NCBI GenBank assembly: GCA_025450105.1
Contig: JANWIA010000022.1
Location: 5,630-69,629, forward strand
Length of the DNA: 64,000 bases
From: Candidatus Doudnabacteria bacterium
GTDB taxonomy: Bacteria > Patescibacteriota > Doudnabacteria > UBA920 > O2-02-FULL-48-8
Direction: 5' to 3'
Within the stretch, counting starts at the first letter, position 1. Each line of letters starts with the position of its first letter. A program made the translations under genes and the position numbers. Below the pieces are notes generated by a model. It saw only the letters and a program-made list of their open reading frames with translations. It did not search any database and was not told where the DNA came from. This document shows positions 32,945 through 63,805 of this stretch, in pieces.

Positions 32945-33122
32945 GTGTTTCCTTTGTCACGCAGCGGCCAGGACAAGCCACTCGTCGAATTAATTAAAGT
33001 TACTTTACCACATTTTTCCCTTTTTCGCAAATGTCGCACAACCAATACTTTTTTGCATTGTACGACAATGCTATAATTAATATATGAACTGGATCCTGAC
33101 CTCCGTCAGGATGACAATACTT

Positions 33123-34082
33123 ATGCCTGAAACTAAAATCACCAAATTAGACCGCTATTACATTCAATTCCTGGAATATATGGAAATTGAACGTAACCGA
33201 TCCAAGCTTACCTTGCGAAATTACGACCACTATCTTAAACGATTTGTGGAGTTTTGTAAGTCTCAGGGCGTCACTGACCCCGAAGACGTTGATTTGGAAT
33301 TAGTCCGTTCATTCCGCTTATACTTAAACCGCTTAACCGAAAAGAATAAATCGCTCAAGATAATTACCCAGAATTATCACTTAATCGCCATTCGAAGCTT
33401 TTTAAAGTATTTAGCCCGCCGCGACATTAAATCTTTAGCTGCGGAAAAGATAGAATTGCCAAAAACACCCTCGCGATCTGTGAGTTTTTTGGAAGTCGAC
33501 GAAGTCGAACGGTTACTCGACGCCACGAACCAGGAAAAGGATAAATTGACCAGATTGCGCGACCGCGCAATTCTTGAACTGTTATTTTCCACTGGCCTGC
33601 GTATTTCAGAACTCGTTAGTCTCAAGAAGGACCAAGTAAACATTAAGCGCGGCGAATTTTCTGTCCGCGGTAAAGGCGACAAAATGCGCTTGGTATTTTT
33701 ATCTGACCGCGCCAAGAATGCACTTGAAGCTTATGCCAAAGCTCGCACTGACAATTCCAAAGCAATTTTCATCCGTCACGATTCTAAGGAATCCGTAGAA
33801 CAACAAATGAAATCTTTGGACAAACCAATGCCTGGATTAACCCCACGCACGGTTCAGCGATTGATAATAAAATATCAACTGCTTGCCGGAATTACAAAAA
33901 GTATCAGTCCACATACTTTACGCCATTCATTTGCTACGGACATGCTGGCCAATGGTGCAGACTTGCGATCAGTCCAAGAATTGCTAGGTCATGCCTCAAT
34001 TTCGACTACACAAATTTATACTCACTTAACCAACAAACGTTTACGGGATATTTACGACAAATTCCACAATCAAAAGCATTAG
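33123..34082 (+). CDS. Tyrosine site-specific recombinase XerC/XerD family
   Basis: C-terminal catalytic box HTLRHSFATDMLANGADLRSVQELLGHASISTTQIYTHL (R..HxxR..Y). Confidence 0.8.
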   Translation: MPETKITKLDRYYIQFLEYMEIERNRSKLTLRNYDHYLKRFVEFCKSQGVTDPEDVDLELVRSFRLYLNRLTEKNKSLKIITQNYHLIAIRSFLKYLARRDIKSLAAEKIELPKTPSRSVSFLEVDEVERLLDATNQEKDKLTRLRDRAILELLFSTGLRISELVSLKKDQVNIKRGEFSVRGKGDKMRLVFLSDRAKNALEAYAKARTDNSKAIFIRHDSKESVEQQMKSLDKPMPGLTPRTVQRLIIKYQLLAGITKSISPHTLRHSFATDMLANGADLRSVQELLGHASISTTQIYTHLTNKRLRDIYDKFHNQKH

Positions 34083-36807: not shown

Positions 36808-37749
36808 ATGACTAATAAAGAAACTAAAACAAAAGTTATTACAGTTGCCATCTTCGCGGCAATTTTGGTCGCTTTTTTTGCCCTGCTAATCGGTGACAAC
36901 AACGTCGCGTTGCTCAACCCAAAAGGAATTATCGCCGCCCAACAAAAATCTCTGATAATTACTTTAATTGGCCTAATGCTGATCATTGTTATTCCCGTTC
37001 TGACGGCAACATTTTTTATTTCTTGGAAATACCGCGAAGGTAATCCTGCCTCTGAATACACTCCCAACAAAGTTAACACGCTCACCCAACAACTGACATT
37101 ATGGAGCTTCCCTGTCGTCATCATTTTTTTTATGAGCATAATCATGTGGCAAAGCACTCATAAATTGGATCCGTTCAAACCAATTGCTTCTGCCAACAAA
37201 CCAATAACAATCCAAGTCGTGGCTTTACAATGGAAATGGTTATTTATTTATCCGGAACAGCAAATTGCCACAATAAACTTTGTCCAATTCCCCGAGCAGA
37301 CCCCAATTAACTTTGAACTGACCGCCGACGCGCCAATGAATTCGTTTTGGATTCCGCAATTGGGCGGGCAAATGTATTCCATGCCTGGCATGAAAACGCA
37401 TTTGAATTTGATGGCAACTGAACAAGGGGAATTTGCAGGATCTGCCGCGGAAATTAGCGGCAGCGGATTTGCCGGCATGAAATTTGTTGCCAAATCCAGT
37501 TCGCAACAAGATTTTGATCAATGGATAAAATTTGTAAAAAATTTCAATTCTGCGTTGGACATGGAAGCTTATGAACAAATATCCGAACCTTCGGAATACG
37601 ACCCCGTTGCCTACTATTCCGTGGCCGAAGAAAAGTTATTCGATAATGTTATGATGCAATTCATGCCGCAAGAATCTCACATGCAAACACACAGTATGCT
37701 CGACACGATTCCCGTTCCCCTCCCTCCAAAACCAATTAACACACTATAA
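36808..37749 (+). CDS. cyoA: Cytochrome bo3 ubiquinol oxidase subunit II
   Basis: FWIPQLGGQMYSMPGMKTHLNL block typical of quinol-oxidase subunit II lacking CuA ligands. Confidence 0.85.
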   Translation: MTNKETKTKVITVAIFAAILVAFFALLIGDNNVALLNPKGIIAAQQKSLIITLIGLMLIIVIPVLTATFFISWKYREGNPASEYTPNKVNTLTQQLTLWSFPVVIIFFMSIIMWQSTHKLDPFKPIASANKPITIQVVALQWKWLFIYPEQQIATINFVQFPEQTPINFELTADAPMNSFWIPQLGGQMYSMPGMKTHLNLMATEQGEFAGSAAEISGSGFAGMKFVAKSSSQQDFDQWIKFVKNFNSALDMEAYEQISEPSEYDPVAYYSVAEEKLFDNVMMQFMPQESHMQTHSMLDTIPVPLPPKPINTL

Positions 37750-39711
37750 ATGTTTGGCAAACTCACATTAGCAGCGCTCCCACACGAATGGTTCACGATT
37801 GGCGGCACATTGTTTATGGCCGCATCGGGAATCGTGCTTTTTGCCGCGTTGACCTACTACAAAAAATGGGGCTGGTTGTGGAATGACTGGCTGACTTCCA
37901 CTGACCCAAAAAAAATCGGGATCATGTACGTCATTGTTGCGGCCGCGATGTTTGCGCGCGGCGCCTTGGATGCGGCCATCATCTGGTTTCATCAAGCAAT
38001 TTCGGTTGGACCAAATTCAGGATTGATGGACGCCGATCATTTTCAGCAAATCTTTACCGCCCATGGCGACATCATGATCTTTTTCGTGACCATGGGATTT
38101 TTGTTTGGTTTGCTTAACTACATTGTTCCGCTGCAAATTGGCGCGCGCGACGTGGCCTTCCCGTTCCTGAACACTTTAGGATTCTGGTTGTTTGTTGCCG
38201 GAGCGATTCTCATTAATTTATTCTTTGTCCTTGGCGGGGATTTTGCGGCCACGGGTTGGCTGGCGCAGGCGCCACTGTCGGAACTGGAATTCAGCCCCGG
38301 GGTCGGCGTGGATTATTGGATCTGGAGTTTGCAGGTTTCCGGACTCGGTACGCTGTTGGGCGGCATTAATTTATTAGTGACGATTTTAAAAATGCGCGCG
38401 CCAGGCATGACGCTCATGAAAATGCCGTTGTTTGTTTGGACCACGCTCTGCAGTATGGTCTTAGTCACGACAATTTTCCCAATCCTGACCATGACTATCT
38501 TCCTATTGTTCGTGGACCGGTATTTTGGCATGCACTTTTTTACTACCACCGGCGGCGGCAATCCAATGATGTACACCAACTTAATTTGGATGTGGGGCCA
38601 TCCGGAAGTTTATGTTTTAATTTTACCGGCGTTTGGGATTTATTCGGAAGTTGTCCAAACCTTTAGCCAAAAACGGTTAGCTGGTTACGTGTCGCTGGTT
38701 TGCGGCGCAATCGGCATTTCCATATTGGCGCTTGTCGTTTGGTTGCATCACTTCTTTACCATGGGCGCCGATTCCAATGTCAACGCCTTCTTTGGATTGA
38801 TGACTATGCTCATTGCTATTCCGACTGGTGTGCAAATTTTGAGCTGGCTAGCCACAATGTATAAAGGCAGGATCAAATTCACAACGCCAATGAAATGGTT
38901 TTTGGGATTCGTCAGCACTTTTACTTTTGGCGGCATGGCCGGACTGTTGTTAGCCGCGCCTCCTGCCGATTTCCAACTACATAACAGTTTATTTTTGGTC
39001 GCACACGTCCACACCATGATTGTCGGCGGCGCCCTGTTTGGAATTTTTGCCGGAATTATTTATTGGTTTCCAAAAGTTACCGGCTTCAAGCTTAACGAAA
39101 AAATCGGCAACTACGCATTTTGGTTTTGGCTGGTCGGGTTTTTCCTGTCCTTTACCCCACTTTATATTTTGGGGTTGATGGGCGCCACACGCCGCTTGGA
39201 CCACTATGAAGCATCAACCGGTTGGCAACCGCTGTTTATTGTTTCGGCCATCGGTTTGGTTGTCATTGCCATTGGTTTTGGTTTGCAGCTGTTGCAAATT
39301 TTCGTCAGCTACCTGCAGCGCAAACAAAATGCCGACACCACGGGCGATCCATGGAACGGCCGAACACTGGAATGGATGACCCAGTCCCCGCCGCCGGTTT
39401 ATAATTTTGCGATTGTGCCTCATGTAGAATCCCGCGAACCGCTGTGGGACTTGAAGCAGGCAGGAGGCAGAAGGCAAGAGACAGGACAATACGAAGATAT
39501 TCATATGCCAAAAAATACACCGCTGGGAATTTATACTGCCGGTTTTGCTTTCTTAATTGGTTTTGCTTTTATTTGGCACATTACTTGGTTGGTCATCGTC
39601 GGGTTAATCGGCGCCGTTGCCTGCATGATTTGGCGAACATTTGATGATGAGACGGAATATAAAATTAAAGCCTCAGAACTGGCAAAAATGGAATCAAAAC
39701 GAAACCTATGA
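37750..39711 (+). CDS. cyoB: Cytochrome bo3 ubiquinol oxidase subunit I (heme-copper oxidase)
   Basis: WMWGHPEVYVLILPAFG and His ligand pattern; 653 aa; start overlaps cyoA stop. Confidence 0.95.
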   Translation: MFGKLTLAALPHEWFTIGGTLFMAASGIVLFAALTYYKKWGWLWNDWLTSTDPKKIGIMYVIVAAAMFARGALDAAIIWFHQAISVGPNSGLMDADHFQQIFTAHGDIMIFFVTMGFLFGLLNYIVPLQIGARDVAFPFLNTLGFWLFVAGAILINLFFVLGGDFAATGWLAQAPLSELEFSPGVGVDYWIWSLQVSGLGTLLGGINLLVTILKMRAPGMTLMKMPLFVWTTLCSMVLVTTIFPILTMTIFLLFVDRYFGMHFFTTTGGGNPMMYTNLIWMWGHPEVYVLILPAFGIYSEVVQTFSQKRLAGYVSLVCGAIGISILALVVWLHHFFTMGADSNVNAFFGLMTMLIAIPTGVQILSWLATMYKGRIKFTTPMKWFLGFVSTFTFGGMAGLLLAAPPADFQLHNSLFLVAHVHTMIVGGALFGIFAGIIYWFPKVTGFKLNEKIGNYAFWFWLVGFFLSFTPLYILGLMGATRRLDHYEASTGWQPLFIVSAIGLVVIAIGFGLQLLQIFVSYLQRKQNADTTGDPWNGRTLEWMTQSPPPVYNFAIVPHVESREPLWDLKQAGGRRQETGQYEDIHMPKNTPLGIYTAGFAFLIGFAFIWHITWLVIVGLIGAVACMIWRTFDDETEYKIKASELAKMESKRNL

Positions 39712-40289
39712 TGCACACCGATGCCGGCCATAAAAATGTTTTAGGATTTTGGATCTATTTAATGACCGATCTTTTGATGTTCGCGGTTTTGTTTGCAACC
39801 TACGCCGTGTTGCGCACTAGCACGTTTGGCGGCCCGACCGAAAATGAATTGTTCAGCCTGCCCTTTGTTTTGATCGAAACCATGATCCTTCTAACCAGTA
39901 GTTTTACTGTCGGCGTGGCAATCCTAAACGTTGATCGCGAAAAAAATGCCATAAGGCACGTTGCAACTTGGCTCATCATTACTTTCGTGCTTGGTGTTTC
40001 GTTCTTGGCCATGGAACTCGACGAATTCGGAAAACTTATTGCCGACGGCCACAACTGGCAATCGAGCGCTTTCTTGTCGTCATTCTTTTCCTTGGTTGGC
40101 ACCCATGGCTTGCACATTGCCAGCGGTTTGCTCTGGATCCTGATCATGCTGGTTAAAATGTGGCAGCGCGGAGAAATCAACCACAACACCGCCCGGCAAA
40201 TTACTTTACTAAGCTTATTCTGGCACTTCCTGGATGTCGTTTGGATCTTCATTTTTAGTTTTGTTTATCTAATGGGAGTAGGCTTATGA
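39708..40289 (+). CDS. cyoC: Cytochrome bo3 ubiquinol oxidase subunit III
   Basis: 5-TM subunit III similarity; ATGA overlap with cyoB. Confidence 0.85.
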   Translation: MMHTDAGHKNVLGFWIYLMTDLLMFAVLFATYAVLRTSTFGGPTENELFSLPFVLIETMILLTSSFTVGVAILNVDREKNAIRHVATWLIITFVLGVSFLAMELDEFGKLIADGHNWQSSAFLSSFFSLVGTHGLHIASGLLWILIMLVKMWQRGEINHNTARQITLLSLFWHFLDVVWIFIFSFVYLMGVGL

Positions 40290-40630
40290 ACCACGCCAAA
40301 TTAAAATCCTATATTTTTGGATTCCTATCTTCAGTCATCCTTACCTTGCTAGCCTATTCTTTGGTCAATTTAAACTTGGCCAGTGGGCCGCAATTGACGA
40401 TTGGCATTATGAGCCTGGCCTTTATTCAAGCGTTAGTCCAGTTAGTTTTCTTTTTGCATCTGGGCCGCGAGCAGAGTCCAAAATGGAATCTGGCCGTATT
40501 CCTTTCCACCGCGTCCATGATTTTTTTGGTCATTTTTGCCTCGATTTGGATTATGAACAGTTTAAATTACCGCCACGCCCATCCGGATGACGTCACAAAT
40601 TATATTCTGGAACAAGAAGGAATCCATTAA
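40286..40630 (+). CDS. cyoD: Cytochrome bo3 ubiquinol oxidase subunit IV
   Basis: 3-TM, 114 aa, position in operon; ATGA overlap. Confidence 0.7.
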   Translation: MNHAKLKSYIFGFLSSVILTLLAYSLVNLNLASGPQLTIGIMSLAFIQALVQLVFFLHLGREQSPKWNLAVFLSTASMIFLVIFASIWIMNSLNYRHAHPDDVTNYILEQEGIH

Positions 40631-41484
40631 TGGTCCGCGTCTACTATAATTTGGCCAAGCCTGGTCTTGTTTACGGCAACTGCCTCACCGGCATGGCCGG
40701 TTTTTTATTAGCCTCTCAGGCTCATGTCAATTTTCTGCTCTTGCTCGAAACCATTGCAGGACTTGGATTGGTCATGGCTTCGGCCTGTGTCCTCAATAAT
40801 GTTTATGACGCGGATATTGATTCCAAAATGGAGCGAACCAAAACCCGGGCCACGGTCACCGGTGAAATTTCCAAATTCAACGCATCGATTTACGGAATTT
40901 TGCTCGGCCTTGCCGGCTACTCATTACTTTATTTCTATACCAATCTTTTGACGGTTGGCGTTGCCGCAGTCGGGACCATTGTTTACCTGCTATTTTACTC
41001 TCCGTTCAAACGCCGTTCGACAATGGCCACGATTGTCGGTGGCCTTTCCGGCGCCACCCCGCCGGTAATCGGGTACTGTGCCGTTACTAATAATTTTGAT
41101 TTAGGTGCGCTGCTACTTTTCCTCATTTTATTTTTCTGGCAACTGCCGCACTTTTATGCTATCTCCATTTACCGGCTTGGTGATTATACCGCTGCGGCCG
41201 TGCCCGTCATGTCTGTAAAAAAAGGAATTCGAGTTACCAAATTTAATATTCTTGTTTGTGTGATTGGATTTATTGCCTCTACTATATCGCTCAAACTCTA
41301 CGGTTACATTGGTCTGGTTTCAATAATCATTGTAGGGATTGTCAGTTTGAATTGGCTCCGTCTTGCCTTAAAGGGTTTCAGCGCAGAAAATGATGTAAAG
41401 TGGGCAAGGAAAATGTTTTTCTTTTCCTTGATTGTCCTGCTAACTCTTTCGGCCATGCTTTCTCTAGACGCGCTACTGATTTAA
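40630..41484 (+). CDS. cyoE: Protoheme IX farnesyltransferase (heme O synthase), UbiA family
   Basis: UbiA-type Asp-rich motifs (NNVYDADID); 284 aa; overlaps cyoD stop. Confidence 0.85.
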   Translation: MVRVYYNLAKPGLVYGNCLTGMAGFLLASQAHVNFLLLLETIAGLGLVMASACVLNNVYDADIDSKMERTKTRATVTGEISKFNASIYGILLGLAGYSLLYFYTNLLTVGVAAVGTIVYLLFYSPFKRRSTMATIVGGLSGATPPVIGYCAVTNNFDLGALLLFLILFFWQLPHFYAISIYRLGDYTAAAVPVMSVKKGIRVTKFNILVCVIGFIASTISLKLYGYIGLVSIIIVGIVSLNWLRLALKGFSAENDVKWARKMFFFSLIVLLTLSAMLSLDALLI

Positions 41485-42765: not shown

Positions 42766-43401
42766 CTATTTCATCGGCACTGCAACTGGTTGTTCGGCCG
42801 GAGTTTTAAAAACAATATATTTATAGCCAAGAAAATCAATAAGCACGCCGACGATTGTGGCAATTAATTTGCCAATGTTTAACCACGCGCCCGGATTGAT
42901 TCCAAACATCGGACTCAAGTAACTGGTGAAAGCAACAATTATAACGCTGTTAGCAATTAAGCCAATAATGGTGACTAGCGCAAACTTTGGCACATCCTTA
43001 AATAAATGTCCCTGGTCTTCGGCTTTCTTAAACACCCAAAGCTTATTCCAAAAATAACTATTACTCGCTGCCAAGAATGTGCCTGGAACATTGTATCCGC
43101 CAACCAATAGTCCGGCGGTAACGCCTGTGATCAAACTGGCCATGTTCAGGACGCCAAAATTTATGGCAGTGTTAAGCACACCAATTTCAGCGAACTTGGC
43201 GATCTGTAAAATAACCGGCACCATCTTGGCGATTTCCTTGGCAACCTTCAAGCCAACAATCCAACAAAACGCCAACACAACCGGCAGTCCTGCCAGAATG
43301 GCAACGTGGTCATAACCGATGTTAATGATGGTCGGGATCAAGAAAATACCAGAAAGCAACCCGGCAATTGCAGCTAATCCATAATCCTTAGAAGTAATCA
43401 T
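42766..43401 (-). CDS. GtrA-family membrane protein
   Basis: C-terminal block IATIVGVLIDFLGYKYIVFK resembles GtrA. Confidence 0.55.
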   Translation of the reverse strand: MITSKDYGLAAIAGLLSGIFLIPTIINIGYDHVAILAGLPVVLAFCWIVGLKVAKEIAKMVPVILQIAKFAEIGVLNTAINFGVLNMASLITGVTAGLLVGGYNVPGTFLAASNSYFWNKLWVFKKAEDQGHLFKDVPKFALVTIIGLIANSVIIVAFTSYLSPMFGINPGAWLNIGKLIATIVGVLIDFLGYKYIVFKTPAEQPVAVPMK

Positions 43402-43447
43402 TTTGTTTCGTTAATTTGAGGCTTTTTTATATTATACCCAAAAATAA

Positions 43448-46400
43448 CTAAACCTTTAAGTCCTGGCTGACCCAGCCGTTGCCTGTGGTAAGTTCTTTTT
43501 GAAGGTGGCGAGGTTGTGGCACATCCCCGGATGTAGATGCATGCAGGTAGTACTTCCCTTTTGGAACCATCATAAAATATCGGCCGCGGAAATCCGACAC
43601 CGCAAAGGTCACGCGGTTGTTGGCGAGATCAGTCAAATAGATTGGGGCCAGGGCCATTGGCAAACCGGTGGCGCTGTTTCTGATGATGCCAAACGGTTTT
43701 GGCCGGATCTTAAGCAGGCGAGCAATGGCAATGAACACAAACAGGACGATCAATCCAAAACTGATGACATCCGGCTGGGCAATATAGCCGGCGACCGTAA
43801 GCGGAAACGCGGCCCAAAATGAGAAATTCGAAAAAGTGATCAAGGCTTTCCTAAACAAAGCCCGGGGCGAAGTTCTGGTTTTGGCAATTGGATCCATCGG
43901 TAAATCTAAATTGGAGCTTTGCTGTGGATTGACCGTAATCATGCCGCCCAAATATATGTCCCCGAATGGCATGTTGGCCATATCGGCAAAAGTTTTTTGG
44001 GTTGGGAATTTATATTTTGGGTGCTCGGCAAAAAATTGAATTTTCTGCTCCGATCCGGCCAGGCCTCGCGGCGAAATCAAAAATGCATACCGCCCATCCG
44101 GGCCGGCAATGGTTGATTCCAAAATTTTTAATCTTTCATTTAAGACATTAACATGGGCATGTGGAATCGGCTGCAAAGTTTTGGAATCAAAAACCACGCC
44201 CCAAGGGTTTCGTTTACGGCGCAACCCCAGCGCTTCCATCAAAGCCAAAATCCAATACTTAAAATAATTAACGCTGTTCAAACCGCTAAGCAAATCAATC
44301 AAAGCAGAACCGGTGGTAATCAACGGCGTGATCAAAAGCAAAAACGTTATAAACCTCAAACTCATCGTCCCACCCGGTACCATCTCCAAAATTTCCTGGG
44401 TCGATTCCTGGACTTGGTCCGGGACAAAACCTTGGGTGAAATCAAACGCCCCGCCAGAACCTTCATCATCTGTATCAACACTGCCCCCGCCATTTGGTCG
44501 GTCGATAGGCGGAGGTGGCGGAGTAATACTTGGCGTTTCCGGATCAGATGGTCCTGGAGGAGTCACCGGTGGCGGTGGCGGCGGATCTGGTAATGGTTCG
44601 TTGGTTTCGGTATCGAATCGTGATGGGCCGCCGGAAGAAGAGTTGTCCAACAAGACAGCCTGTTCCTCGTCAGTGTCATTTGCATAAACAAAAACGGTAT
44701 AAGTCCCTTCAACTGCTCCCGGCGGAATCACAACGGAAAATCCATGATCATCCGGATATCCAGTTACGTCATTAACATCCGGTCTTGGGTCATCGGCGAC
44801 AATAACAATCGGATCAGAGTCAGGAGAAGTCGGGTCTTCAAAATAAATTTCAATCGTTACCGGTGCATCCGGATCGTTTGGATCCACGGCCCAACCAGTG
44901 ATGACCGTGCCGCCATTTGTGCCATTCTCGTCAACGTGACCAATCGGATCGTCATTGCCTGGAGGGATAATTACTGGATCGTGGTCACAAATTACTGGCG
45001 GGGAAACATATAGGCTGTTGATGAACGCCCGGGTTGGCGTGACCAAATTACCGCTTTTGCCATTATTACCGATTAGATCAGCGTAGGCAGTTTGGAAACG
45101 GCGGACTGCATCACGGGTGTTGTCGCCGTAATACTCAACCTCGTGGCCCGGTGAACCAGCGCCACTTAGCGCGACCATGAATCCGTTATCGTTCAAAAAC
45201 CTCTGCAAATATACAACCTGCGGATGTGTTTGCCGATGCGAAATGTTTTCGGAAAATGAAATTTCCGGCGGACGCAACTGTATCGGCGGATACGACACAC
45301 AATCCGGTTCTGCAGGTGGAGGCGGCGGGATCACAACCGGCGGCGGCGGAGGTGGTGGTGGAGTTTCCGCTGCGGTCAGGACAATTGTATCCGACACAAC
45401 TTGCGACGAAGAATTTATATTTTTATAAAAACGAACATAGACAGTATAAGTTCCCGGCTCACAGGTAGATGTGAACTCACAAATGTCCCAGGATATAGTT
45501 TCCTCATAATCCATTTGCTCGTATGGTGACAACAATGAATGATCTGAGATCCTGATGTAGTTGGCATCCGGTCCGCCGGACAAAGTTAAAGTTACATTCC
45601 TGGAATTGGTTGTTGTGTCGCCAGAATTTATCGTCACCCTAAAGCCACCGTTAGGCTCCTGCATACCATTATTATTGTTTCCTCCCCCGCCCCCGTCTGC
45701 TGCGGCAGAAGTTGTGGCGGAATCAGTAACCGCTGAAGTTTCTGTTCCGTCGCCATTGCGGGCTTTCACGGAAAAATTATAAAGCGTGGATGGTGACAAC
45801 GAAGTAGACATCCACGATACACCGTCCGCGACCCAACCCGAATCTGTTGATGCTGTTGTGTTAGCGGCAAAAAATGCCGTACCGGCCGGGTTACTGTTGA
45901 CGTTCCAAGTTGCCGTAATTTGAGAGGATGAATCAACAGTTAATATTAAGGCGCTTGGCGGATTGGCCAAAGTATATGCGCTGCTATTGGCAGAGTTGGC
46001 AGTATTGCCTGCTAAATCTGTGACTGTTACAAAGAAAGTGTACTGGACATTAACGCTTAATCCATTGCTGGCCCACGACGTACCGGCTTGCGCTCCAGAA
46101 CTGGTCGCCGCGGTGGAGTTTTGAATATTATATGGTGCTGCTGCCAAACCAGATAAAGCATCCGAAGCACCGGCAACCGTTGCGGTTATCGATGATGTTG
46201 TAATTGTCCCTGTAGAAACTGTTCCTGCAGTTGGTGCGGCAGTATCAACCTTAAAGGCAATCGCGCCGCTATTGGCGGTCGAATAAGAAGATTCGGCAGC
46301 CGAATTATCAATGGCTTTTACTTGCCAATAGTAGCCGGAGCTGTCGGCCAAGGTTTGCCCGCCTGATCCTGTAGTATACGATCCACCGCCAGCCGCTTGG

Positions 46401-48985
46401 CCAACAGTAAACGAAAAACTTCCCTGCGCCGCCACGGCAGAAGTATAATCAACCACGACTGACGAAAAATCACTCGTGTCGTCGATTTGAATCCTAAAGC
46501 CGACAGTATCCGAACCATCTGGATCACTTAAACTGAAAGTCAGAGTTGGAGTGTTGTCATTCCCCCATGATCCATTGACGTATGAAGCAGGACCCAAAGA
46601 TCCCGGCGCGTCCGGATTAGTGTTACAACCGATAAAGGTCCAAGCGTTATTGGAAGTGTTAGTCGAACTTTTGGCAGTGATGGTGCCAGCCTGGTCTGTG
46701 GCTGCCACGTCTGTGATGGTTGTGGTCCCGGATCCGGACCAGGTGCGCTGCGTTGGGCTGGAAGAAGATGAAATTGCAATCGCATCGGCGCCGCCGCAAC
46801 CAACGCCGGAACCGTCCAAAGTAATTGTGCCGGAATTGCCGACGTCGCCAGCCAAAGAAATATCCCCCGTCCCGGTATTGCTCCAGGTGCCGCTCGATCC
46901 AATTGTGGTCGCACCTCCAGTGGTCAAATTAAAAGTTGCGCCCTGGTCAAAAGTTCCGGATGCGACTTCAAATGTCCCGCCCAAAACCAAAGCTGTGGCC
47001 TGCGTTAAACTGCTGCCCACGGTTTTATTGACCTTGAGCTTGGCCGAAAATGTTCCGGCCGTTTGGGTGATGGTCTTGTTGCTGCCGCCGGTAAATTCAA
47101 ATGTTAAATTGGACCCGCCCATGGTATTGGTTGAAGCCATGGAAAAATTTCCACCGATAAACCATGTCTTGGCTGAACCAGGGTTAGTGACCGTTCCCAA
47201 AGTTCTGGTGAAATCTCCGGTCACAGTGCAGTCAGCGGCCAAGCCAAGCTCTCCGGCCAAGTTGGTTTTGTTCAATACGACCGAACCCAGTGTGGCTGTA
47301 CCGCAAGTCAATGATGTATCTTCTGTGACTCCATCAAACGTAAAGGCAATTCCATTTGGCAGCAGGTTGCCAGTGTTATCCAGGTTGTTGCGAACACTCA
47401 TAGTAGTAATCCCGGCCGGGAACGACCCGCCGGACAATGTCATGCTTCCATTCATGTCTATTGTCGTGCCGGACATTGTCACAACCGATCCGGTGTTCAT
47501 TGTATAATTCGCATTTATGGTCCAGGTTCCAGTACCGACAGTTATGGTGCCATTGTTGGTAATGCTGGTCGAGCTAGACGTTGGACTGTTCCCAAGCGGC
47601 AAAGTACAGGTCGAACCGATGGTTAATCCCGTAGATGATAAAGACTGGCTAATTGCAGCAGATGCAAAAGTAACCGTACCGCAAGACAACGTACTCGATG
47701 TGCCAGCGCCAGCATCCAGGGTTAATGCAATTCCGTTCGGTAAAAGATTTGCGGTGTTTGTTAGACTCCCGGTTAAACTTAATGTTGCCAGTCCGGCCGG
47801 AAACACCCCGTCAGTTAAAGTCAGGCTACCATTTACATCCATGACTGTTCCACCCATGGTTAAGGTCGATCCGGTATTTTGGGTATAGCTCGCGTTTACT
47901 GTCCAAGTGCCAGTGCCGACGTTGATTGTGCCGTTATTTACAATTGAAAGCGAACTCGATGTCGGGCTGTTTCCAAGTGGCAAAGTACAGTTCGAACCAA
48001 CTGTTAATCCAGTCGCAGACAAACTTTGGCTGATGACCACTGATGCAAAGGTTGCGGTGCCGCAAGAAAGCGTGCTGGTTGCACCTGCGCCACTGTCGAT
48101 GGTCAGAGCAATGTCGTTTGGCAAAAGATTGGCCGTGTTAGTCAAGCTTCCAGTCAGGGTCATTGTCGTGATTCCGGCTGGGAATGATCCGCCGGATAAG
48201 GTCAAACTACCGTTCATATCCAAAGTTGTGCCGCCCATGGTCAAGGTCGATCCACCATTTTGCGTGTAACCCCCGGTAATTGTAAAAGTTCCAGTGCCGA
48301 CGTTGATAGTTCCATTGTTGGTAATAAACCCTTGAGCCGTGGCGCTGTTTCCGAGTGGCAGAGTACAAGCCGAACCGATAGTCGTGGTCGCAACTGTTAG
48401 TGATCCGGTGATGGTCACGGCATTAAACGTCGCGCTATTACAGGCTATGGATTGGTTAACGCCATTGCCGGTATCAAAAAGGACAGTTCCACCATTTGCA
48501 TTGAAGGTTGGACTGCCGCTGATTGTAAAATTATTGTTGATGGAAAAAGTTCCTGAGGTTGAAGTAAAAATTCCACCCGTAAGACTGAAGGTTCCATTAA
48601 GGTCGATGGTTTGTGTAGCGCCGGTAAACGTTCCTGTTGATTGTGAGTAACCAGAAGAACCAATCGTCAAGCTCCGCGCCTGTGTAATTGTCCCGCTATA
48701 ACCAGTACTTATTGTTAATCCGCCGACCGAACCAGCAAACGACCCATCGATGCTGGCATTTGTTGTGGATGTGCTATCAAAAAATGCAATGTCTGAACCA
48801 GTGGGACAAGTATCCGCGCTCCAATTAGCACAAGTACTCCACAGGCCGTCAGTACTGTCGTTGTCCCATGTTCTTGTTGCTGCCCGCGCAGGCCGATCTA
48901 TAATCAAAACGATCACGACCAAAAGAAAAAGCGCTACAGCTAGCGTAATTTTTTTAAAAATTGCTTTTGAGTGGGCTGCTTTCAC
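43448..48985 (-). CDS. Giant (about 1845 aa) cell-surface protein: N-terminal TM/signal, Gly/Thr-rich roughly 130-aa tandem beta-repeats, poly-Pro linkers, peptidoglycan-binding-like domain, C-terminal polytopic membrane anchor with Ig-like modules
   Basis: Repeats TGTFTITGGYTQNGGSTLTMGGT...; PG_binding-like YLQRFLNDNGF...DAVRRFQ; C-terminal hydrophobic helices. Confidence 0.75.
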   Translation of the reverse strand: MKAAHSKAIFKKITLAVALFLLVVIVLIIDRPARAATRTWDNDSTDGLWSTCANWSADTCPTGSDIAFFDSTSTTNASIDGSFAGSVGGLTISTGYSGTITQARSLTIGSSGYSQSTGTFTGATQTIDLNGTFSLTGGIFTSTSGTFSINNNFTISGSPTFNANGGTVLFDTGNGVNQSIACNSATFNAVTITGSLTVATTTIGSACTLPLGNSATAQGFITNNGTINVGTGTFTITGGYTQNGGSTLTMGGTTLDMNGSLTLSGGSFPAGITTMTLTGSLTNTANLLPNDIALTIDSGAGATSTLSCGTATFASVVISQSLSATGLTVGSNCTLPLGNSPTSSSLSIVNNGTINVGTGTWTVNASYTQNTGSTLTMGGTVMDVNGSLTLTDGVFPAGLATLSLTGSLTNTANLLPNGIALTLDAGAGTSSTLSCGTVTFASAAISQSLSSTGLTIGSTCTLPLGNSPTSSSTSITNNGTITVGTGTWTINANYTMNTGSVVTMSGTTIDMNGSMTLSGGSFPAGITTMSVRNNLDNTGNLLPNGIAFTFDGVTEDTSLTCGTATLGSVVLNKTNLAGELGLAADCTVTGDFTRTLGTVTNPGSAKTWFIGGNFSMASTNTMGGSNLTFEFTGGSNKTITQTAGTFSAKLKVNKTVGSSLTQATALVLGGTFEVASGTFDQGATFNLTTGGATTIGSSGTWSNTGTGDISLAGDVGNSGTITLDGSGVGCGGADAIAISSSSSPTQRTWSGSGTTTITDVAATDQAGTITAKSSTNTSNNAWTFIGCNTNPDAPGSLGPASYVNGSWGNDNTPTLTFSLSDPDGSDTVGFRIQIDDTSDFSSVVVDYTSAVAAQGSFSFTVGQAAGGGSYTTGSGGQTLADSSGYYWQVKAIDNSAAESSYSTANSGAIAFKVDTAAPTAGTVSTGTITTSSITATVAGASDALSGLAAAPYNIQNSTAATSSGAQAGTSWASNGLSVNVQYTFFVTVTDLAGNTANSANSSAYTLANPPSALILTVDSSSQITATWNVNSNPAGTAFFAANTTASTDSGWVADGVSWMSTSLSPSTLYNFSVKARNGDGTETSAVTDSATTSAAADGGGGGNNNNGMQEPNGGFRVTINSGDTTTNSRNVTLTLSGGPDANYIRISDHSLLSPYEQMDYEETISWDICEFTSTCEPGTYTVYVRFYKNINSSSQVVSDTIVLTAAETPPPPPPPPVVIPPPPPAEPDCVSYPPIQLRPPEISFSENISHRQTHPQVVYLQRFLNDNGFMVALSGAGSPGHEVEYYGDNTRDAVRRFQTAYADLIGNNGKSGNLVTPTRAFINSLYVSPPVICDHDPVIIPPGNDDPIGHVDENGTNGGTVITGWAVDPNDPDAPVTIEIYFEDPTSPDSDPIVIVADDPRPDVNDVTGYPDDHGFSVVIPPGAVEGTYTVFVYANDTDEEQAVLLDNSSSGGPSRFDTETNEPLPDPPPPPPVTPPGPSDPETPSITPPPPPIDRPNGGGSVDTDDEGSGGAFDFTQGFVPDQVQESTQEILEMVPGGTMSLRFITFLLLITPLITTGSALIDLLSGLNSVNYFKYWILALMEALGLRRKRNPWGVVFDSKTLQPIPHAHVNVLNERLKILESTIAGPDGRYAFLISPRGLAGSEQKIQFFAEHPKYKFPTQKTFADMANMPFGDIYLGGMITVNPQQSSNLDLPMDPIAKTRTSPRALFRKALITFSNFSFWAAFPLTVAGYIAQPDVISFGLIVLFVFIAIARLLKIRPKPFGIIRNSATGLPMALAPIYLTDLANNRVTFAVSDFRGRYFMMVPKGKYYLHASTSGDVPQPRHLQKELTTGNGWVSQDLKV
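47130..48650. repeat. Diverged tandem coding repeats (about 390-nt period, 3.5 or more copies, roughly 75% identity) inside the giant surface-protein gene
   Basis: Antisense ORF translations at 47517 and 47907 are near-identical; direct nucleotide comparison of consecutive 390-nt blocks. Confidence 0.7.
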
Positions 48986-49105
48986 AAAAAACTTATCCTA
49001 GCTTTGTAATTTTATCCCTCAATAATTTTATTTCAATAATTTTTAATAATTTTATAGTAAAACTATACCATATTTCGAGAGTTTTTTCAATTTCTCTCAA
49101 AAATA

Positions 49106-49134
49106 AAAAACACTCCCGCTTGGGAGTATTTTTT
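49106..49134 (-). terminator. Intrinsic terminator after the DEAD-box helicase gene
   Basis: actccc/gggagt stem plus T-run on the minus strand. Confidence 0.5.
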
Positions 49135-50464
49135 ATTTCGGTCGGGTCATAAAGTAACCGCCGCCGTCTGTACCGCCGGAAGGACGGGATCGACGTGGAA
49201 AGCGTCTGGAATCTTCAAACCTTGGCTTACGGCCACCGGGTTTAAATTTGCTGCGGGGAAATCCTCCGCGTGACGGAAATTCTCGTCGCGGACGATGTCC
49301 TCTTGGTTCAGAACTTGAACTGGAAGTTGAAACGTCATTGGCTAATGGATGTTTTGGTTTGGCCAATGTCTGCTTAATCATTCTTTCGATTGAAAAAACA
49401 TCGCGGCGTTGATCCGGTGTGGCCAAAGTGATTGCGCGGCCAACCATTCCGGCACGGCCAGTGCGGCCAATGCGATGGACATAGTCATCAGCAGTTGCTG
49501 GCAAATCGTAGTTGATAACTAACTCGATTCCCTTAACGTCGATGCCACGGGCGGCAATGTCGGTTGCAACTAAAACTCGGTAGCGCCCGATTTTAAACCC
49601 ATCCAAAGCTTCACGTCGCTGACCTTGTGATCGGTTGGAATGAATTTCGGAAGAAGTGATTTTTAAATTTCGCAAATAACGGGCAACGTCACGGGCCTTA
49701 TATTTGGTTCTGGTAAAAACTAAAACACTGCCCTTGAATTCTTCCAGCAATGATTTAAGCAAATCGTCTTTTTTATTCTTATCAATGAAAAATAATTCTT
49801 GTGTCACGGTTTCAACAGTTGATCGTGGTGGTGCGACTTCTACCCGCAACGGCAAAGACATGTAGGAATTGGCCAGTGCAATAATTTCCTGTGGCATGGT
49901 TGCGGAAAACAATAAAGTTTGGCGTTTCGACGGAACCTTGGCAATAATTTTTCTAATCTGCGGCTCAAAACCCATATCGAGCATGTGGTCGGCTTCGTCC
50001 AAAACCAAAATGCCGACATTGGACAAGCTCAAATGGCTGTTTTCCAAATGATCATTGAGGCGGCCAGGGGTAGCCACGACGATATGCGGATTTTGGCGCA
50101 ACATCCGCAGTTGGTTGCGCATGGACTCGCCGCCAATCAAAACCGCAGTTTTTAATCCAAGACTGCCGCCGATTTTTTTGAGATTCTCATCTACTTGCAA
50201 CGCCAATTCGCGGGTCGGCAACAAGATCAAACCCTTTTTGCCTTTGTTGCGAACGAGATATTGAATCATTGGTACGCCAAAAGCCAGGGTCTTCCCGGTG
50301 CCGGTTTGGGCAATGCCCATTAAGTCTTTACCTTCAATGGCAATTGGAATGGATTTCAACTGAATCGGTGTTGGAACCTTAAAATTATTTTTGGCTAAAA
50401 TTTCCAAAAGCGTGGGAGCGATTCCCAAATTTCCAAAATTATTTTCTAATATTGTACTAGTCAT
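49133..50464 (-). CDS. DEAD-box ATP-dependent RNA helicase with RG-rich C-terminal tail
   Basis: Q motif, AQTGTGKT, DEAD, SAT, HRIGRTGRAG. Confidence 0.9.
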   Translation of the reverse strand: MTSTILENNFGNLGIAPTLLEILAKNNFKVPTPIQLKSIPIAIEGKDLMGIAQTGTGKTLAFGVPMIQYLVRNKGKKGLILLPTRELALQVDENLKKIGGSLGLKTAVLIGGESMRNQLRMLRQNPHIVVATPGRLNDHLENSHLSLSNVGILVLDEADHMLDMGFEPQIRKIIAKVPSKRQTLLFSATMPQEIIALANSYMSLPLRVEVAPPRSTVETVTQELFFIDKNKKDDLLKSLLEEFKGSVLVFTRTKYKARDVARYLRNLKITSSEIHSNRSQGQRREALDGFKIGRYRVLVATDIAARGIDVKGIELVINYDLPATADDYVHRIGRTGRAGMVGRAITLATPDQRRDVFSIERMIKQTLAKPKHPLANDVSTSSSSSEPRGHRPRREFPSRGGFPRSKFKPGGRKPRFEDSRRFPRRSRPSGGTDGGGYFMTRPK

Positions 50465-62222: not shown

Positions 62223-63713
62223 TTACCTTGACCTGGTCGATGTGGTCCTAAAATCCAGTAGTCTTACAGATGCACGGCGTTTGGAATTAGCATTTGAGGA
62301 CATATAGATTTTTGATTGGTAAATTGTGATATCCCAGGAGGCATTCCACCATTGTTCGAATCCCCAATCAGTTCCCTGAAGCGTCCCGGACAAACTAAAC
62401 CGCTTTGCCTGCGGCCCGCCGGACAATGGCACAGTCACAATTTGTGGCCGCGATCGACGGCTGCTGGCTCGGGAAATACTCACACGCACCCCGCCCATGT
62501 GTGCAGAATCATACGAATCGAATTCTTCTGTCATATCCCCGTCCTCATCAAAAACTTTAACTGTTGGCGGCATTCCAGGTCCGGGAGCGGTGACAATATA
62601 AACGTCATCCCCATTGGCATAGGCTGCAATATCAACCCCGCCGGCAAAAGCCCCGTCGTAAGCAAAAAATGTCAGCACTTCCGTGCCATCTGGTTTGAAC
62701 GCACGAATGTGCGGCCCGCCGCCCTTACCAGGGGCAGTAATAATTTCGGCTTTGTCGTCATCATCAATATCGGCGGTGGTAACATTTACCCCGCCCAGGA
62801 ACTTCGGGTCATAGGCCATAAACTCGCCGGTTTTTTCACCCGCGGAATTGAAAATCTTTACTAGCGGCTGGCTCTTGCTGGCCGGTGCGGTAATGATTTC
62901 ATTCTTACCATCATCATCCAAATCGCCCACTGCCACATCGACTCCGCCGGTCATTTTCATATCGTAAGCAAAAAAATCTCGGACAATTGTTCCGTTTTCA
63001 TTCATAACTTTTACGTGCGGTCCGCCGCCAGGTCCGGCGCCAATAACAATTTCGGTTCCAGAATCTGAATCTAAATTTCCCGCGGCAATGAACGCCCCGC
63101 CTTCGAATCCGCCGAACGGCAAGATTTCATCGTCCTGGATTGGCCTCTCAATTGGCGTGGTAATTTTCGTTGCGGCCTTCAAACTATTATATGGACTGAT
63201 TGGACTGCGGTCTGGCCTGCGGATTTCAAAATGCAGATGCGCGGTGGTGGTTTCTGCATTACCCGAATCACCCATCCAGCCAATCAATTGACCAGCCACG
63301 ACCTCCATGCCGTCATTAACGTCTGGAGCATAAGCGAACATACCGTCGCCAGTCCCATCATCGGTACCCGGATGGTCATTGTTAATGTGCAAATAATGGT
63401 AGGTGTAGTCGTCTTCGTCGCGAATGGTCACGGAATAGCCCCAGGTCTCTTGCGGATAACTAACATTCACGCGTCCGTCCACAGCCGCAACCAATGGCAA
63501 CATTTTCTTGCCCATCAGGTCATTGCCTTCGTGGGAACGTGCCCCACCATCTCGCGGTGCGCCAAAATCATCATAATAAGTCACGGTACCGATTACCGGA
63601 AAAATAATCTTTCTGGTTTCCCATGTTGCCGCTTTTATTTCTAACGGAACCACGAACATGGACAAGAGTACAAATAAAACTGTAACTTTGCTGAGCAATT
63701 TAAATATTTTCAT
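62223..63713 (-). CDS. Secreted M23 (LytM) metallopeptidase fused to FG-GAP/VCBS-like repeats
   Basis: Signal peptide; HEGNDLMG and HLHFEIR M23 zinc motifs; five or more FGG...DxDxDG repeats. Confidence 0.75.
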   Translation of the reverse strand: MKIFKLLSKVTVLFVLLSMFVVPLEIKAATWETRKIIFPVIGTVTYYDDFGAPRDGGARSHEGNDLMGKKMLPLVAAVDGRVNVSYPQETWGYSVTIRDEDDYTYHYLHINNDHPGTDDGTGDGMFAYAPDVNDGMEVVAGQLIGWMGDSGNAETTTAHLHFEIRRPDRSPISPYNSLKAATKITTPIERPIQDDEILPFGGFEGGAFIAAGNLDSDSGTEIVIGAGPGGGPHVKVMNENGTIVRDFFAYDMKMTGGVDVAVGDLDDDGKNEIITAPASKSQPLVKIFNSAGEKTGEFMAYDPKFLGGVNVTTADIDDDDKAEIITAPGKGGGPHIRAFKPDGTEVLTFFAYDGAFAGGVDIAAYANGDDVYIVTAPGPGMPPTVKVFDEDGDMTEEFDSYDSAHMGGVRVSISRASSRRSRPQIVTVPLSGGPQAKRFSLSGTLQGTDWGFEQWWNASWDITIYQSKIYMSSNANSKRRASVRLLDFRTTSTRSR

Positions 63714-63805
63714 ATGTTGTTCATGGTAGCACACCAAAAAATAATATTGAATAAATAAACTGACTAAAAAATTTCTGCTATAATCTCAATACCATAAGGA
63801 GGATT

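Follow-up and report, generated by a model that had tools for sequence, protein, structure and literature searches.

Type IV pili apart, little is understood of the means by which ultra-small CPR bacteria recognise their partners and keep hold of them, and giant surface proteins, the usual suspects in CPR attachment, have rarely been dissected. Giant membrane or surface proteins bearing adhesion domains have been put forward as candidates for host attachment in CPR bacteria (PMC8080830, PMC13059738, PMC11665869), and the fibrous cell surface of Vampirococcus is attributed to giant proteins (PMC8080830). The protein described here is typical of the giant adhesin-like proteins known from CPR in all but one part, a C-terminal anchor cassette that is itself very widespread. 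The giants of Vampirococcus lugosii (PMC8080830) and of Absconditicoccaceae (PMC13059738) are similar to it in exceeding 1,500 amino acids, in possessing a signal peptide and/or TM segments, in carrying adhesion-type domains such as FN3, and in being encoded in a CPR genome. The domains listed there include WD40, PKD, integrin, DUF11 and Ca-stabilised repeats, unlike the present protein, whose beta-helix head, PG-binding tether and C-terminal cassette are without mention in the passages considered of these two papers (PMC8080830, PMC13059738). The lineages also differ, those giants belonging to Absconditabacteria and the present protein to an uncultivated Doudnabacteria-like bacterium.

Passengers of type Va autotransporters and TPS proteins (VacA p55, Vag8, TibA, pertactin, Ag43, HMW1, EtpA) share 5-14% sequence identity with the protein and are of opposite polarity: here, in an organism that is presumably monoderm-like, the N-terminus would be distal and the C-terminus is a predicted alpha-helical membrane anchor. 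A type Va autotransporter was rejected because the 12-strand beta-barrel translocator of the outer membrane (PF03797) gave no Pfam match at E<=10 and the C-terminus consists of TM helices and sandwiches. A TpsA protein (FHA/HMW1/CdiA-like) was likewise rejected, as there is neither a PF05860 domain nor a neighbouring TpsB and the C-terminus is the anchor. A sortase-anchored LPXTG protein was dismissed since neither LP.[TSA]G nor NP.TG occurs anywhere in the sequence, and the first C-terminal hydrophobic segment has some 250 residues of folded domains behind it, where an LPXTG protein would end in a basic tail. An SLH-anchored S-layer protein was discarded for lack of a PF00395 match in the protein. 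Gram-positive fibrillar adhesins and SRRPs, which combine a beta-solenoid binding region with a wall anchor (L. reuteri SRRP, 5nxk), and the tapirins of Caldicellulosiruptor differ in their mode of retention, as the present protein is without LPXTG or SLH and would instead be held by PG_binding_1 and a polytopic membrane cassette.

Gene structure and genomic context

The gene lies at 43448..48985 on the minus strand of the window, that is, the whole stretch of 64,000 nucleotides analysed; all features of the gene given below are on this strand. The ORF list and translation give a GTG start, a TAA stop and a reading frame unbroken over 5.5 kb. The ORF of roughly 1845 amino acids in the preliminary description is genuine and single, and an identical 1845-aa protein (P0001) is known from NCBI, where its contig measures 70,171 bp. 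Within the 64-kb window, this gene is the sole copy of either the beta-helix head or the anchor. The genome is that of a member of the Patescibacteria/CPR, with a LeuRS 65-72% identical to Candidatus Doudnabacteria sequences. We know of no host reported for the Doudnabacteria-like lineage and, to our knowledge, none of its members has been shown to be episymbiotic.

Promoter-like sites 5' of the gene (49009..49090) were identified by consensus scan and sequence reading: TTGAAA-17-TATAGT with TG (49090-49062) and TTGAAA-16-TAAAAT (49036-49009), both by consensus match only. An SD-like AGGA (48999-48996) stands 10 nt ahead of the GTG start, and a terminator-like hairpin (49112-49127) belongs to the helicase gene upstream. 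The neighbours are genes for a DEAD helicase and a GtrA-like protein. No conserved gene neighbourhood was found, the two closest relatives (P0002 and P0007) having different neighbours. Because these neighbours are unrelated, functional inference from the operon, including GtrA-linked glycosylation, was rejected. Beta-helix head and anchor are combined in one ORF at loci of Saccharibacteria, WWE3, Dojkabacteria and Minisyncoccia, and module content varies widely between relatives.

Probable signal peptide and N-terminal cap

Amino acids 1-35 (48881..48985) show the anatomy of a Sec-type signal peptide, with a K-rich n-region, a 17-aa h-region (hydropathy peak 2.74) and a c-region DRPARA; the putative cleavage site lies between ARA and A, where the protein reads ARA-ATRTWD. 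In 19 of the 19 relatives inspected, an n-region and h-region are followed by an AxA-type site 1-3 amino acids before the conserved mature start xRTWDGGG. The N-terminal hydrophobic segment is thus most likely a cleavable Sec signal peptide with no role as an anchor, and the N-terminus most likely cleaved and free, forming the distal tip. This segment had previously been read as a TM helix and the protein as anchored at both ends. It is indeed hydrophobic; however, a cleavable signal peptide, kept throughout the relatives inspected, would leave the protein anchored at one end only.

The predicted mature protein starts with a conserved cap at the N-terminal end of the beta-helix (aa 36-84, 48734..48880), which has the pattern TRTWD...WS.C.NWS.D.CP...D...FD.TS, containing Cys52 and Cys60. 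Columns W13, S14, N18, W19, P25, D29 and F33 of the cap are invariant in alignment A2. A genome scan, for which the cap motif itself served as the pattern, found the motif in 206 stretches.

Beta-helix and internal repeats

The region from aa 36 to 725 (46811..48880) forms, according to the AF2 model and fold comparison, a right-handed parallel beta-helix of about 34 coils of some 20-21 amino acids, i.e. a continuous three-faced beta-solenoid within the usual range of about 20-25 residues per coil. This agrees with the beta-helix-like stalk on a giant exported surface protein proposed earlier. S, T, G and N make up 56% of the beta-helix and charged residues (D/E/K/R/H) 5.7%, a composition that gives catalysis by the beta-helix a low likelihood. 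Most of the solved beta-helices that come closest to it are adhesins or toxins, with a sequence identity of 5-14%.

Four tandem units of 127 amino acids follow the cap: the degenerate r0 (aa 85-211, 48353..48733), r1 (aa 212-338, 47972..48352; Cys308/Cys333), r2 (aa 339-465, 47591..47971; Cys435/Cys460) and r3 (aa 466-592, 47210..47590; Cys561/Cys586). They are supported by BLASTP and DNA identity, and r2 also by the DNA repeat family D1, whose spacing is 381/378 nt. BLASTP of the whole protein against itself returned the self match only, and unit-by-unit queries were used instead; with these, similarity among the units is far above chance. Units r1 and r2 match with E=6e-55 (73-76% amino acid identity, 67% DNA identity) and r1 and r3 with E=1e-34, r3 being 52-60% identical in amino acids to r1 and r2 and having a DNA identity of 57%. 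The degenerate r0 shares 33-37% of amino acids and 43-45% of nucleotides with r1-r3, with E of about 1e-11 to 1e-13 against r1-r2 and about 5e-06 against r3. The motif C-T-L-P-L-G-N-S is found at three positions (aa 207, 333 and 460), and Cys pairs with 25-aa spacing recur every 126-127 amino acids, one pair per unit. No fifth unit is present, since aa 593-719 match only themselves within the protein by BLASTP. The remaining, non-repeat part of the beta-helix (aa 593-725, 46811..47209) contains the conserved motifs GTFDQGATFNLT, NTGTGD and LDGSG.GCGG, is kept in about 40% of 120 relatives (segment BLAST), and in the AF2 model its strands run on to model residue 687, corresponding to aa 723.

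Tandem repeats are therefore genuine, as the preliminary description had it, but with three clear units and one degenerate unit of 127 amino acids rather than four or more of roughly 130. The underlying DNA array is diverged, as was also noted, with a period of 381/378 nt instead of 390 nt, and is too diverged for Tandem Repeats Finder (minimum score 30; 43000-49500), which reported no 381-nt array; the repeats come to light only in protein comparisons and in seed-extended DNA families. Identity between units is 31-44% at third codon positions and 67-86% at positions 1 and 2, and the longest exact DNA match is 17 nt. On these values third positions are near saturation, and the repeats are old duplications under purifying selection. 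Contingency loci are characterised by near-identical tandem DNA repeats, and an array of 57-67% DNA identity without an exact run above 17 nt is not of this kind; the proposed proneness to slipped-strand variation is accordingly not borne out. Relatives carry from one to at least five units, so length varies between lineages without hypervariability.

Predicted stalk domains and peptidoglycan-binding module

Amino acids 771-1130 (45596..46675) are probably occupied by Ig-like or FN3-like stalk domains with sub-threshold Pfam matches (Ig_Rha78A_N 25.4 bits against a gathering score of 27.4, fn3 18.9 against 25, Big_13 16.7 against 27). For relatives, precomputed Pfam annotation lists the same families, and weak PDB sequence matches to FN3 domains were obtained for the region. 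It is followed by a small conserved domain identified by segment BLAST (aa 1131-1195, 45401..45595; Cys 1169/1175), which in the short relative P0123 is the only ectodomain, and by poly-proline linker 1 (aa 1196-1216, 45338..45400; PPPPPPPPVVIPPPPP), one of the poly-Pro linkers noted before and found again in the translation.

A PG_binding_1 domain (PF01471; aa 1240-1325, 45011..45268) was identified by HMM, with the Pfam match at aa 1254-1301. It scores 25.8 bits in the whole protein and 28.6 bits as a segment, above the gathering score of 23, confirming the PG-binding-like module recognised earlier. The match spans profile positions 2-41 of 57, the first loop carries the insertion SGAGSPGHEVEY, and the AF2 model is helical over the region at low confidence (pLDDT 45-56). 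PG_binding_1 is known from cell-wall hydrolases such as SleC and D-Ala-D-Ala carboxypeptidase, whereas here it sits on an apparently non-enzymatic giant stalk. The domain is about 220 residues from the membrane anchor and cell-proximal to some 1200 residues of beta-helix and Ig domains, and in the Saccharibacteria relatives P0010, P0121 and P0122 it stands at the very C-terminal end, with neither a membrane anchor nor a TM segment behind it. As it is membrane-proximal and replaces the anchor in these relatives as the terminal retention module, PG_binding_1 is more likely to attach the stalk to the wall of its own cell than to a host wall, contrary to the earlier suggestion of a grip on another cell's wall.

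Between this domain and the membrane lie an acidic beta-sandwich (aa 1331-1450, 44636..44995; 22% D+E), defined by AF2 strands with pLDDT 60-72, and the Pro/Asp/Gly-rich linker 2 (aa 1451-1540, 44366..44635), defined by translation and composition (24% Pro; AF2 pLDDT <50). The acidic sandwich matched no Pfam family and is also present in P0003 and P0005 by segment BLAST.

C-terminal anchor cassette

The C-terminal end is a cassette of about 300 amino acids in which three to four hydrophobic helices are interleaved with two CarboxypepD_reg sandwiches, in the order S1/S2, RRKR, sandwich, S3/S4, sandwich. Hydropathy and family columns place S1 at aa 1541-1568 and S2 at aa 1569-1588, followed by RRKRx at aa 1589-1593 (44222..44365). 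S2 contains a conserved K/R at 1576, RRKRx is near-invariant in column statistics of 128 representatives, and the AF2 helices of S1/S2 are of low confidence. Sandwich 1, of the CarboxypepD_reg or transthyretin-like type (aa 1594-1700, 43886..44206), bears the motif WGxVxDS...TDxxGRYxF...FPS...PMDP. The transmembrane hairpin S3/S4 (aa 1716-1755, 43721..43840) was placed by hydropathy, with a median maximum KD of 2.1-2.5 over the family, and by AF2 helices at 1707-1736 and 1740-1757 (pLDDT 85-94). Sandwich 2, of the same type (aa 1764-1845, 43451..43696; AF2 pLDDT 75-91), ends at the C-terminus and contains the best Pfam stretch. For the two sandwiches CarboxypepD_reg (PF13620) scores 45.2 bits against a gathering score of 32.3, with a transthyretin-like 7-strand fold and a pLDDT of 85-94 for the CarboxypepD_reg assignment. 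Hydropathy, AF2 and family statistics thus all support the several C-terminal TM helices and polytopic anchor first proposed. The C-terminal modules formerly called Ig-like are sandwiches of the transthyretin-like, CarboxypepD_reg or CnaB type. They differ from the CarboxypepD_reg/CnaB/transthyretin-like sandwiches of pilins, MSCRAMMs and carboxypeptidase D in forming, as two copies, a fixed C-terminal cassette in which each copy has hydrophobic helices and a K/R cluster ahead of it.

An exhaustive profile search with A1, a profile built with the query included, found 3,302 protein clusters (50% identity) at E<=1e-30; it superseded a word-indexed search with the anchor alone, which gave 3 matches and missed obvious relatives. 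The A1 match reaches the last residues in nearly every protein, and the proteins range from 265 to more than 3000 amino acids with diverse ectodomains (Calx-beta, Ig, FN3, NHL, beta-propellers). In the searchable literature on CarboxypepD_reg in the CPR context no paper was found mentioning the cassette, no solved structure or curated family was found with the arrangement as a unit, and an NCBIfam search gave nothing useful. Over the family, the flanks of the membrane segments carry on average 4.0, 5.0 and 3.3 K+R, versus 0.26 in the S3-S4 loop; by the positive-inside rule, both conserved sandwiches would therefore be cytoplasmic. We tentatively suggest, as a possibility of well below even odds, that the cassette is an undescribed CPR-wide anchoring system with two cytoplasmic sandwiches, and that CPR surface proteins carrying it act as transmembrane connectors.

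Function and alternative explanations

The best explanation is that of a fibrillar, adhesin-like surface protein which a CPR bacterium exports through Sec and anchors in its membrane by the C-terminus (probability about 0.6), with adhesion deduced from fold and architecture. The signal peptide would be cleaved after ARA, and the cassette is predicted to hold the protein in the cytoplasmic membrane. Next to the membrane, the Pro-rich linker, acidic sandwich and PG_binding_1 may root the stalk in the peptidoglycan of the cell itself, as domain order and relatives suggest, while the poly-Pro linker and Ig/FN3-like domains would lift the beta-helix of about 690 residues, approximately 16 nm for its 34 or so coils, off the cell. 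The cap would then be the free distal tip, and cap and beta-helix would be the parts likely to meet another cell or a polysaccharide surface. The four 127-aa units, as old internal duplications, would set the length of the helix. By analogy with other CPR lineages (PMC8080830, PMC13059738), a host-adhesion organelle of an episymbiont is plausible.

A wall tether, a membrane anchor and a long stalk would also fit a structural envelope protein that is no adhesin, such as a surface coat, a spacer or an S-layer-like fibrous layer. No binding pocket is obvious on the surface, which is low in charge and rich in S/T/G/N, the occurrence of the cassette on many unrelated ectodomains would make it a general envelope device, and the fibrous surface of Vampirococcus is ascribed to giant proteins (PMC8080830). 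We nevertheless regard such a structural role as unlikely: neither SLH nor another S-layer family was found in Pfam or NCBIfam, the nearest solved beta-helices are mostly adhesins or toxins, and module content varies among relatives more widely than is usual in proteins that form a lattice. An enzymatic role, with the beta-helix as a polysaccharide lyase, hydrolase, epimerase or depolymerase tethered to the surface and attacking the capsule or wall of a host, is very unlikely, since no catalytic Pfam or NCBIfam family was matched at E<=1, charged residues are scarce in the beta-helix, few charged columns of A2 are invariant, and the resemblance in fold is generic at so low an identity.

The architecture of the preliminary description, with both ends anchored, the PG module on the host wall and length varying by slipped-strand mispairing, draws on a hydrophobic N-terminal segment and a PG_binding_1 domain that are both present and on a copy number that does vary among relatives. 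It is highly improbable in view of the conserved position of the cleavage site, the membrane-proximal module that is terminal in relatives without the anchor, and repeats too dissimilar in DNA to be reported as an array. An assembly artefact or decaying pseudogene, with collapsed, expanded or chimeric repeats, could be suspected, as the contig is of metagenome type and repetitive genes are error-prone in assembly. Such an origin is scarcely credible here, because the frame is uninterrupted, the copies under purifying selection are too diverged to collapse or expand, and relatives share the architecture, the domain order being repeated in the independent assemblies of P0002, P0003, P0006, P0007 and P0009.

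The adhesin-like reading supplies a testable anatomy for one widespread architecture, comprising a free beta-helical tip, an Ig/FN3-like stalk, an own-wall tether and a membrane cassette, and it corrects the polarity proposed before. Should the cassette prove to sort or anchor proteins throughout the Patescibacteria, it would offer a useful marker when their surface proteomes are catalogued, and cultivable Saccharibacteria would allow it to be targeted genetically. Should the sandwiches indeed be cytoplasmic, thousands of CPR surface proteins, the present giant beta-helix fibre among them, would link external contact to a conserved intracellular module rather than being passive tethers, and this module would serve signalling, positioning or coupling to another machine.

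Gene structure and genomic context

The giant protein is the 1845-aa product of a single ORF at 43448-48985 on the minus strand, with a GTG start preceded by AGGA 10 nt on its 5' side. Two consensus matches to sigma-70-like promoters (49090-49062 and 49036-49009) are both located downstream of the terminator-like hairpin closing the preceding DEAD-box helicase gene, and short imperfect AT-rich tandem repeats with 14-nt and 10-nt periods (49007-49053) are found within this promoter-like region. An identical 1845-aa protein, from a contig of 70,171 bp, is present in NCBI. The same strand carries, 46 nt downstream, a gene for a GtrA-family membrane protein (42766-43401, minus strand), and no terminator-like site separates the two. 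This gene may be co-transcribed with the giant gene, and its product could be linked to glycosylation of the S/T-rich giant protein. This pairing is absent from the loci of P0002 (L080) and P0007 (L081), the two closest relatives, both from metagenome assembly GCA_034680565.1. Their genes lie in other contexts, and the neighbourhood is not kept among relatives. A 2,3-bisphosphoglycerate-independent phosphoglycerate mutase gene directly follows the P0002 and P0007 genes, which is not so for the gene in the window.

Housekeeping genes in the window include those of LeuRS, MetRS, SHMT, TGT and PNPase. LeuRS shares 65-72% identity with sequences labelled Candidatus Doudnabacteria and about 60% with other Patescibacteria, indicating a CPR (Patescibacteria) genome; by analogy with other CPR lineages the lifestyle would be episymbiotic. 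A cytochrome bo3-type quinol oxidase cluster (36808-41484, plus strand) comprises COX2 with COX_ARM (36808-37749), COX1 (37750-39711), COX3 (39708-40289) and a heme O synthase of the UbiA family (40630-41484). Patescibacteria do not typically carry genes for aerobic respiration. Also encoded are a 758-aa PAS-PAS-GGDEF-EAL protein of cyclic-di-GMP turnover (644-2920, minus strand), unexpected for a reduced CPR genome; a 571-aa envelope protein (27075-28790, minus strand) in which a PspC domain and the PspC transmembrane region are combined with DUF2807, the 'auto-transporter adhesin head GIN' domain; a phage-integrase family tyrosine recombinase with an N-terminal SAM-like domain (33084-34082, plus strand), which may be either XerC/D or the integrase of a mobile element; and a 504-aa Peptidase_M23-domain protein (62223-63737, minus strand), possibly a cell-wall hydrolase.

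N-terminus, beta-helix and repeats

Residues 1-35 are read as a cleavable Sec signal peptide: the n-region is rich in K, the h-region is 17 residues long and the c-region reads DRPARA. A comparable segment was seen in all 19 relatives inspected, where its AxA-type site falls 1-3 residues ahead of xRTWDGGG, the conserved start of the mature protein (ARA|ATRTWD in the giant protein). The N-terminal TM helix of the preliminary description, and with it anchoring at both ends, is not borne out by this anatomy and conserved site position.

A beta-helix spans aa 36-725. An AlphaFold2 model of aa 37-770, built from an 11-sequence alignment (mean pLDDT 84.8, pTM 0.72), is an unbroken stack of 3-5-residue strands as far as aa 723. 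The hydrophobic periodicity is 21/41 residues, plus 127 for the repeat unit, and implies about 34 coils, or an estimated length of roughly 16 nm at 0.48 nm per coil. The composition is 56% S/T/G/N and only 5.7% charged residues. Every repeat unit contains one pair of Cys at a distance of 25 residues (182/207, 308/333, 435/460 and 561/586), and this spacing suggests a disulfide staple joining adjacent coils.

Unit-by-unit comparison confirmed the repeats but no fifth copy in the giant protein, where four or more had been proposed, and placed the period at 127 aa (381-378 nt) rather than 130 aa (390 nt). Units r1 (aa 212-338) and r2 (339-465) share 73-76% aa identity (E 6e-55) and 67% DNA identity; r3 (466-592) is 52-60% identical to these in aa (E about 1e-30 to 1e-38) and 57% in DNA. 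The degenerate r0 (85-211) shares 33-37% aa and 43-45% DNA identity with r1-r3 (E about 1e-11 to 1e-13 against r1 and r2, about 5e-06 against r3). Tandem Repeats Finder reported no array for the region, the longest exact run common to any two units is 17 nt, and between-unit identity is 67-86% at codon positions 1 and 2 and 31-44% at position 3. Because of the low DNA identity, short exact runs and codon-position pattern, the units are read as old duplications maintained by purifying selection, and a length prone to slipped-strand variation, as once suggested, finds no support at 43-67% DNA identity. The units are likewise too diverged for collapse or expansion by an assembler.

Stalk and wall-proximal region

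The stalk (aa 771-1195) gives sub-threshold matches to Ig_Rha78A_N, fn3 and Big_13, families that are also listed in the precomputed annotation of relatives. The wall-proximal region (aa 1196-1540) consists of an 8+5 proline linker, PG_binding_1, an acidic sandwich that matches no family (aa 1331-1450, pLDDT 60-72), and a linker with 24% Pro. The peptidoglycan-binding module recognised earlier holds up, scoring 25.8 and 28.6 bits against a Pfam cut-off of 23. It sits cell-proximal. In three relatives from Saccharibacteria (P0010, P0121 and P0122) it comes last, at 29 residues from the C-terminus and followed by no TM segment, so that it must be what retains these proteins. On this basis the module is assigned a probable role as tether between the stalk and the cell's own wall, rather than the host wall supposed earlier.

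C-terminal cassette

The cassette, or anchor (aa 1541-1845), comprises in order the borderline hydrophobic segments S1 and S2, a near-invariant RRKRx, a CarboxypepD_reg (transthyretin-like) sandwich, a strongly hydrophobic S3/S4 hairpin and a second sandwich, which ends the protein. With the anchor alone as query, word-indexed searching gave 3 matches and missed relatives of 30-45% identity, whereas an exhaustive search of 1.84 billion representative proteins with a profile of 20 cassettes matched 26,093 proteins at E<=1e-3, 3,302 of them at E<=1e-30. Single-stretch top matches cover the whole profile and end at the C-terminus of proteins from 265 to over 3000 aa. In ten such proteins the ectodomains are unrelated (Calx-beta, Ig, FN3, NHL or lactonase propellers); the few that have a name are annotated 'hypothetical protein', one example coming from Candidatus Paceibacterota. 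Pfam and NCBIfam contain no model of the cassette as one unit, and no description of it was found in literature on CarboxypepD_reg together with CPR.

In a set of 128 representatives, the hairpin segments S3 and S4 stand out as clearly transmembrane, while S1 and S2 are borderline. Mean K+R counts in this set are 4.0 after S2, 5.0 before S3, 0.26 in the S3-S4 loop and 3.3 after S4. The positive-inside rule would therefore put both sandwiches in the cytoplasm, with one crossing within S1/S2. Fold precedent argues the opposite, as CnaB domains, pilins and carboxypeptidase D all lie outside the cytoplasm.

Relatives and distribution

The best 120 relatives, mostly 1000-3200 aa, are a modular mosaic whose widely common part is the cap (the conserved N-terminal end of the helix, aa 36-84), repeats and post-repeat helix. 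Most are unlabelled, and those with an organism label are chiefly Patescibacteria (Saccharibacteria, Doudnabacteria, Parcubacteria, Uhrbacteria). Of the 120, 19 have the anchor and some have duplicated Ig/FN3 blocks; the N-terminal module of relatives measures 473-1065 aa and contains the CxxPxGN motif 0-5 times. In a scan of GTDB species representatives, cap and helix were found in many CPR classes and also in Planctomycetota, Omnitrophota, Bdellovibrionales and Chloroflexota. Within the fetched loci, anchor and helix occur together only in CPR-type records (Saccharibacteria, WWE3, Dojkabacteria, Minisyncoccia, Patescibacteria) and some 'Gammaproteobacteria'-labelled contigs. Five contigs labelled 'uncultured Gammaproteobacteria' or 'Pseudomonadales' (L003, L008, L025, L038 and L075) encode CPR-type beta-helix proteins, with the CPR-type cassette also on the last three; these labels look unreliable.

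Proposed function

The giant protein is best read as a Sec-exported, fibrillar adhesin-like surface protein with a C-terminal anchor only, in which the beta-helix and its conserved cap would form the free distal end. A role in adhesion is inferred from the fold family, the non-catalytic composition and the literature, since giant CPR surface proteins are treated as attachment candidates in PMC8080830, PMC13059738 and PMC11665869. A purely structural coat protein is one rival reading. The earlier picture of a protein anchored at both ends, binding host peptidoglycan and prone to slippage is contradicted on all three points. That the gene is an assembly artefact is contradicted by its intact reading frame, its diverged repeat units and the existence of independent relatives.

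Functionally the giant protein resembles the fibrillar adhesins of Gram-positive bacteria or the passengers of autotransporters. One defining feature each of the autotransporter, TPS, LPXTG and SLH families was looked for and found lacking, which places the protein outside these families. Giant CPR surface proteins are an already known kind, and this one would not in itself surprise a CPR specialist; what is new is that a PG_binding_1 tether is here combined with a widespread, uncurated polytopic cassette. It is this cassette, and the side of the membrane that its conserved sandwiches face, that merits attention.
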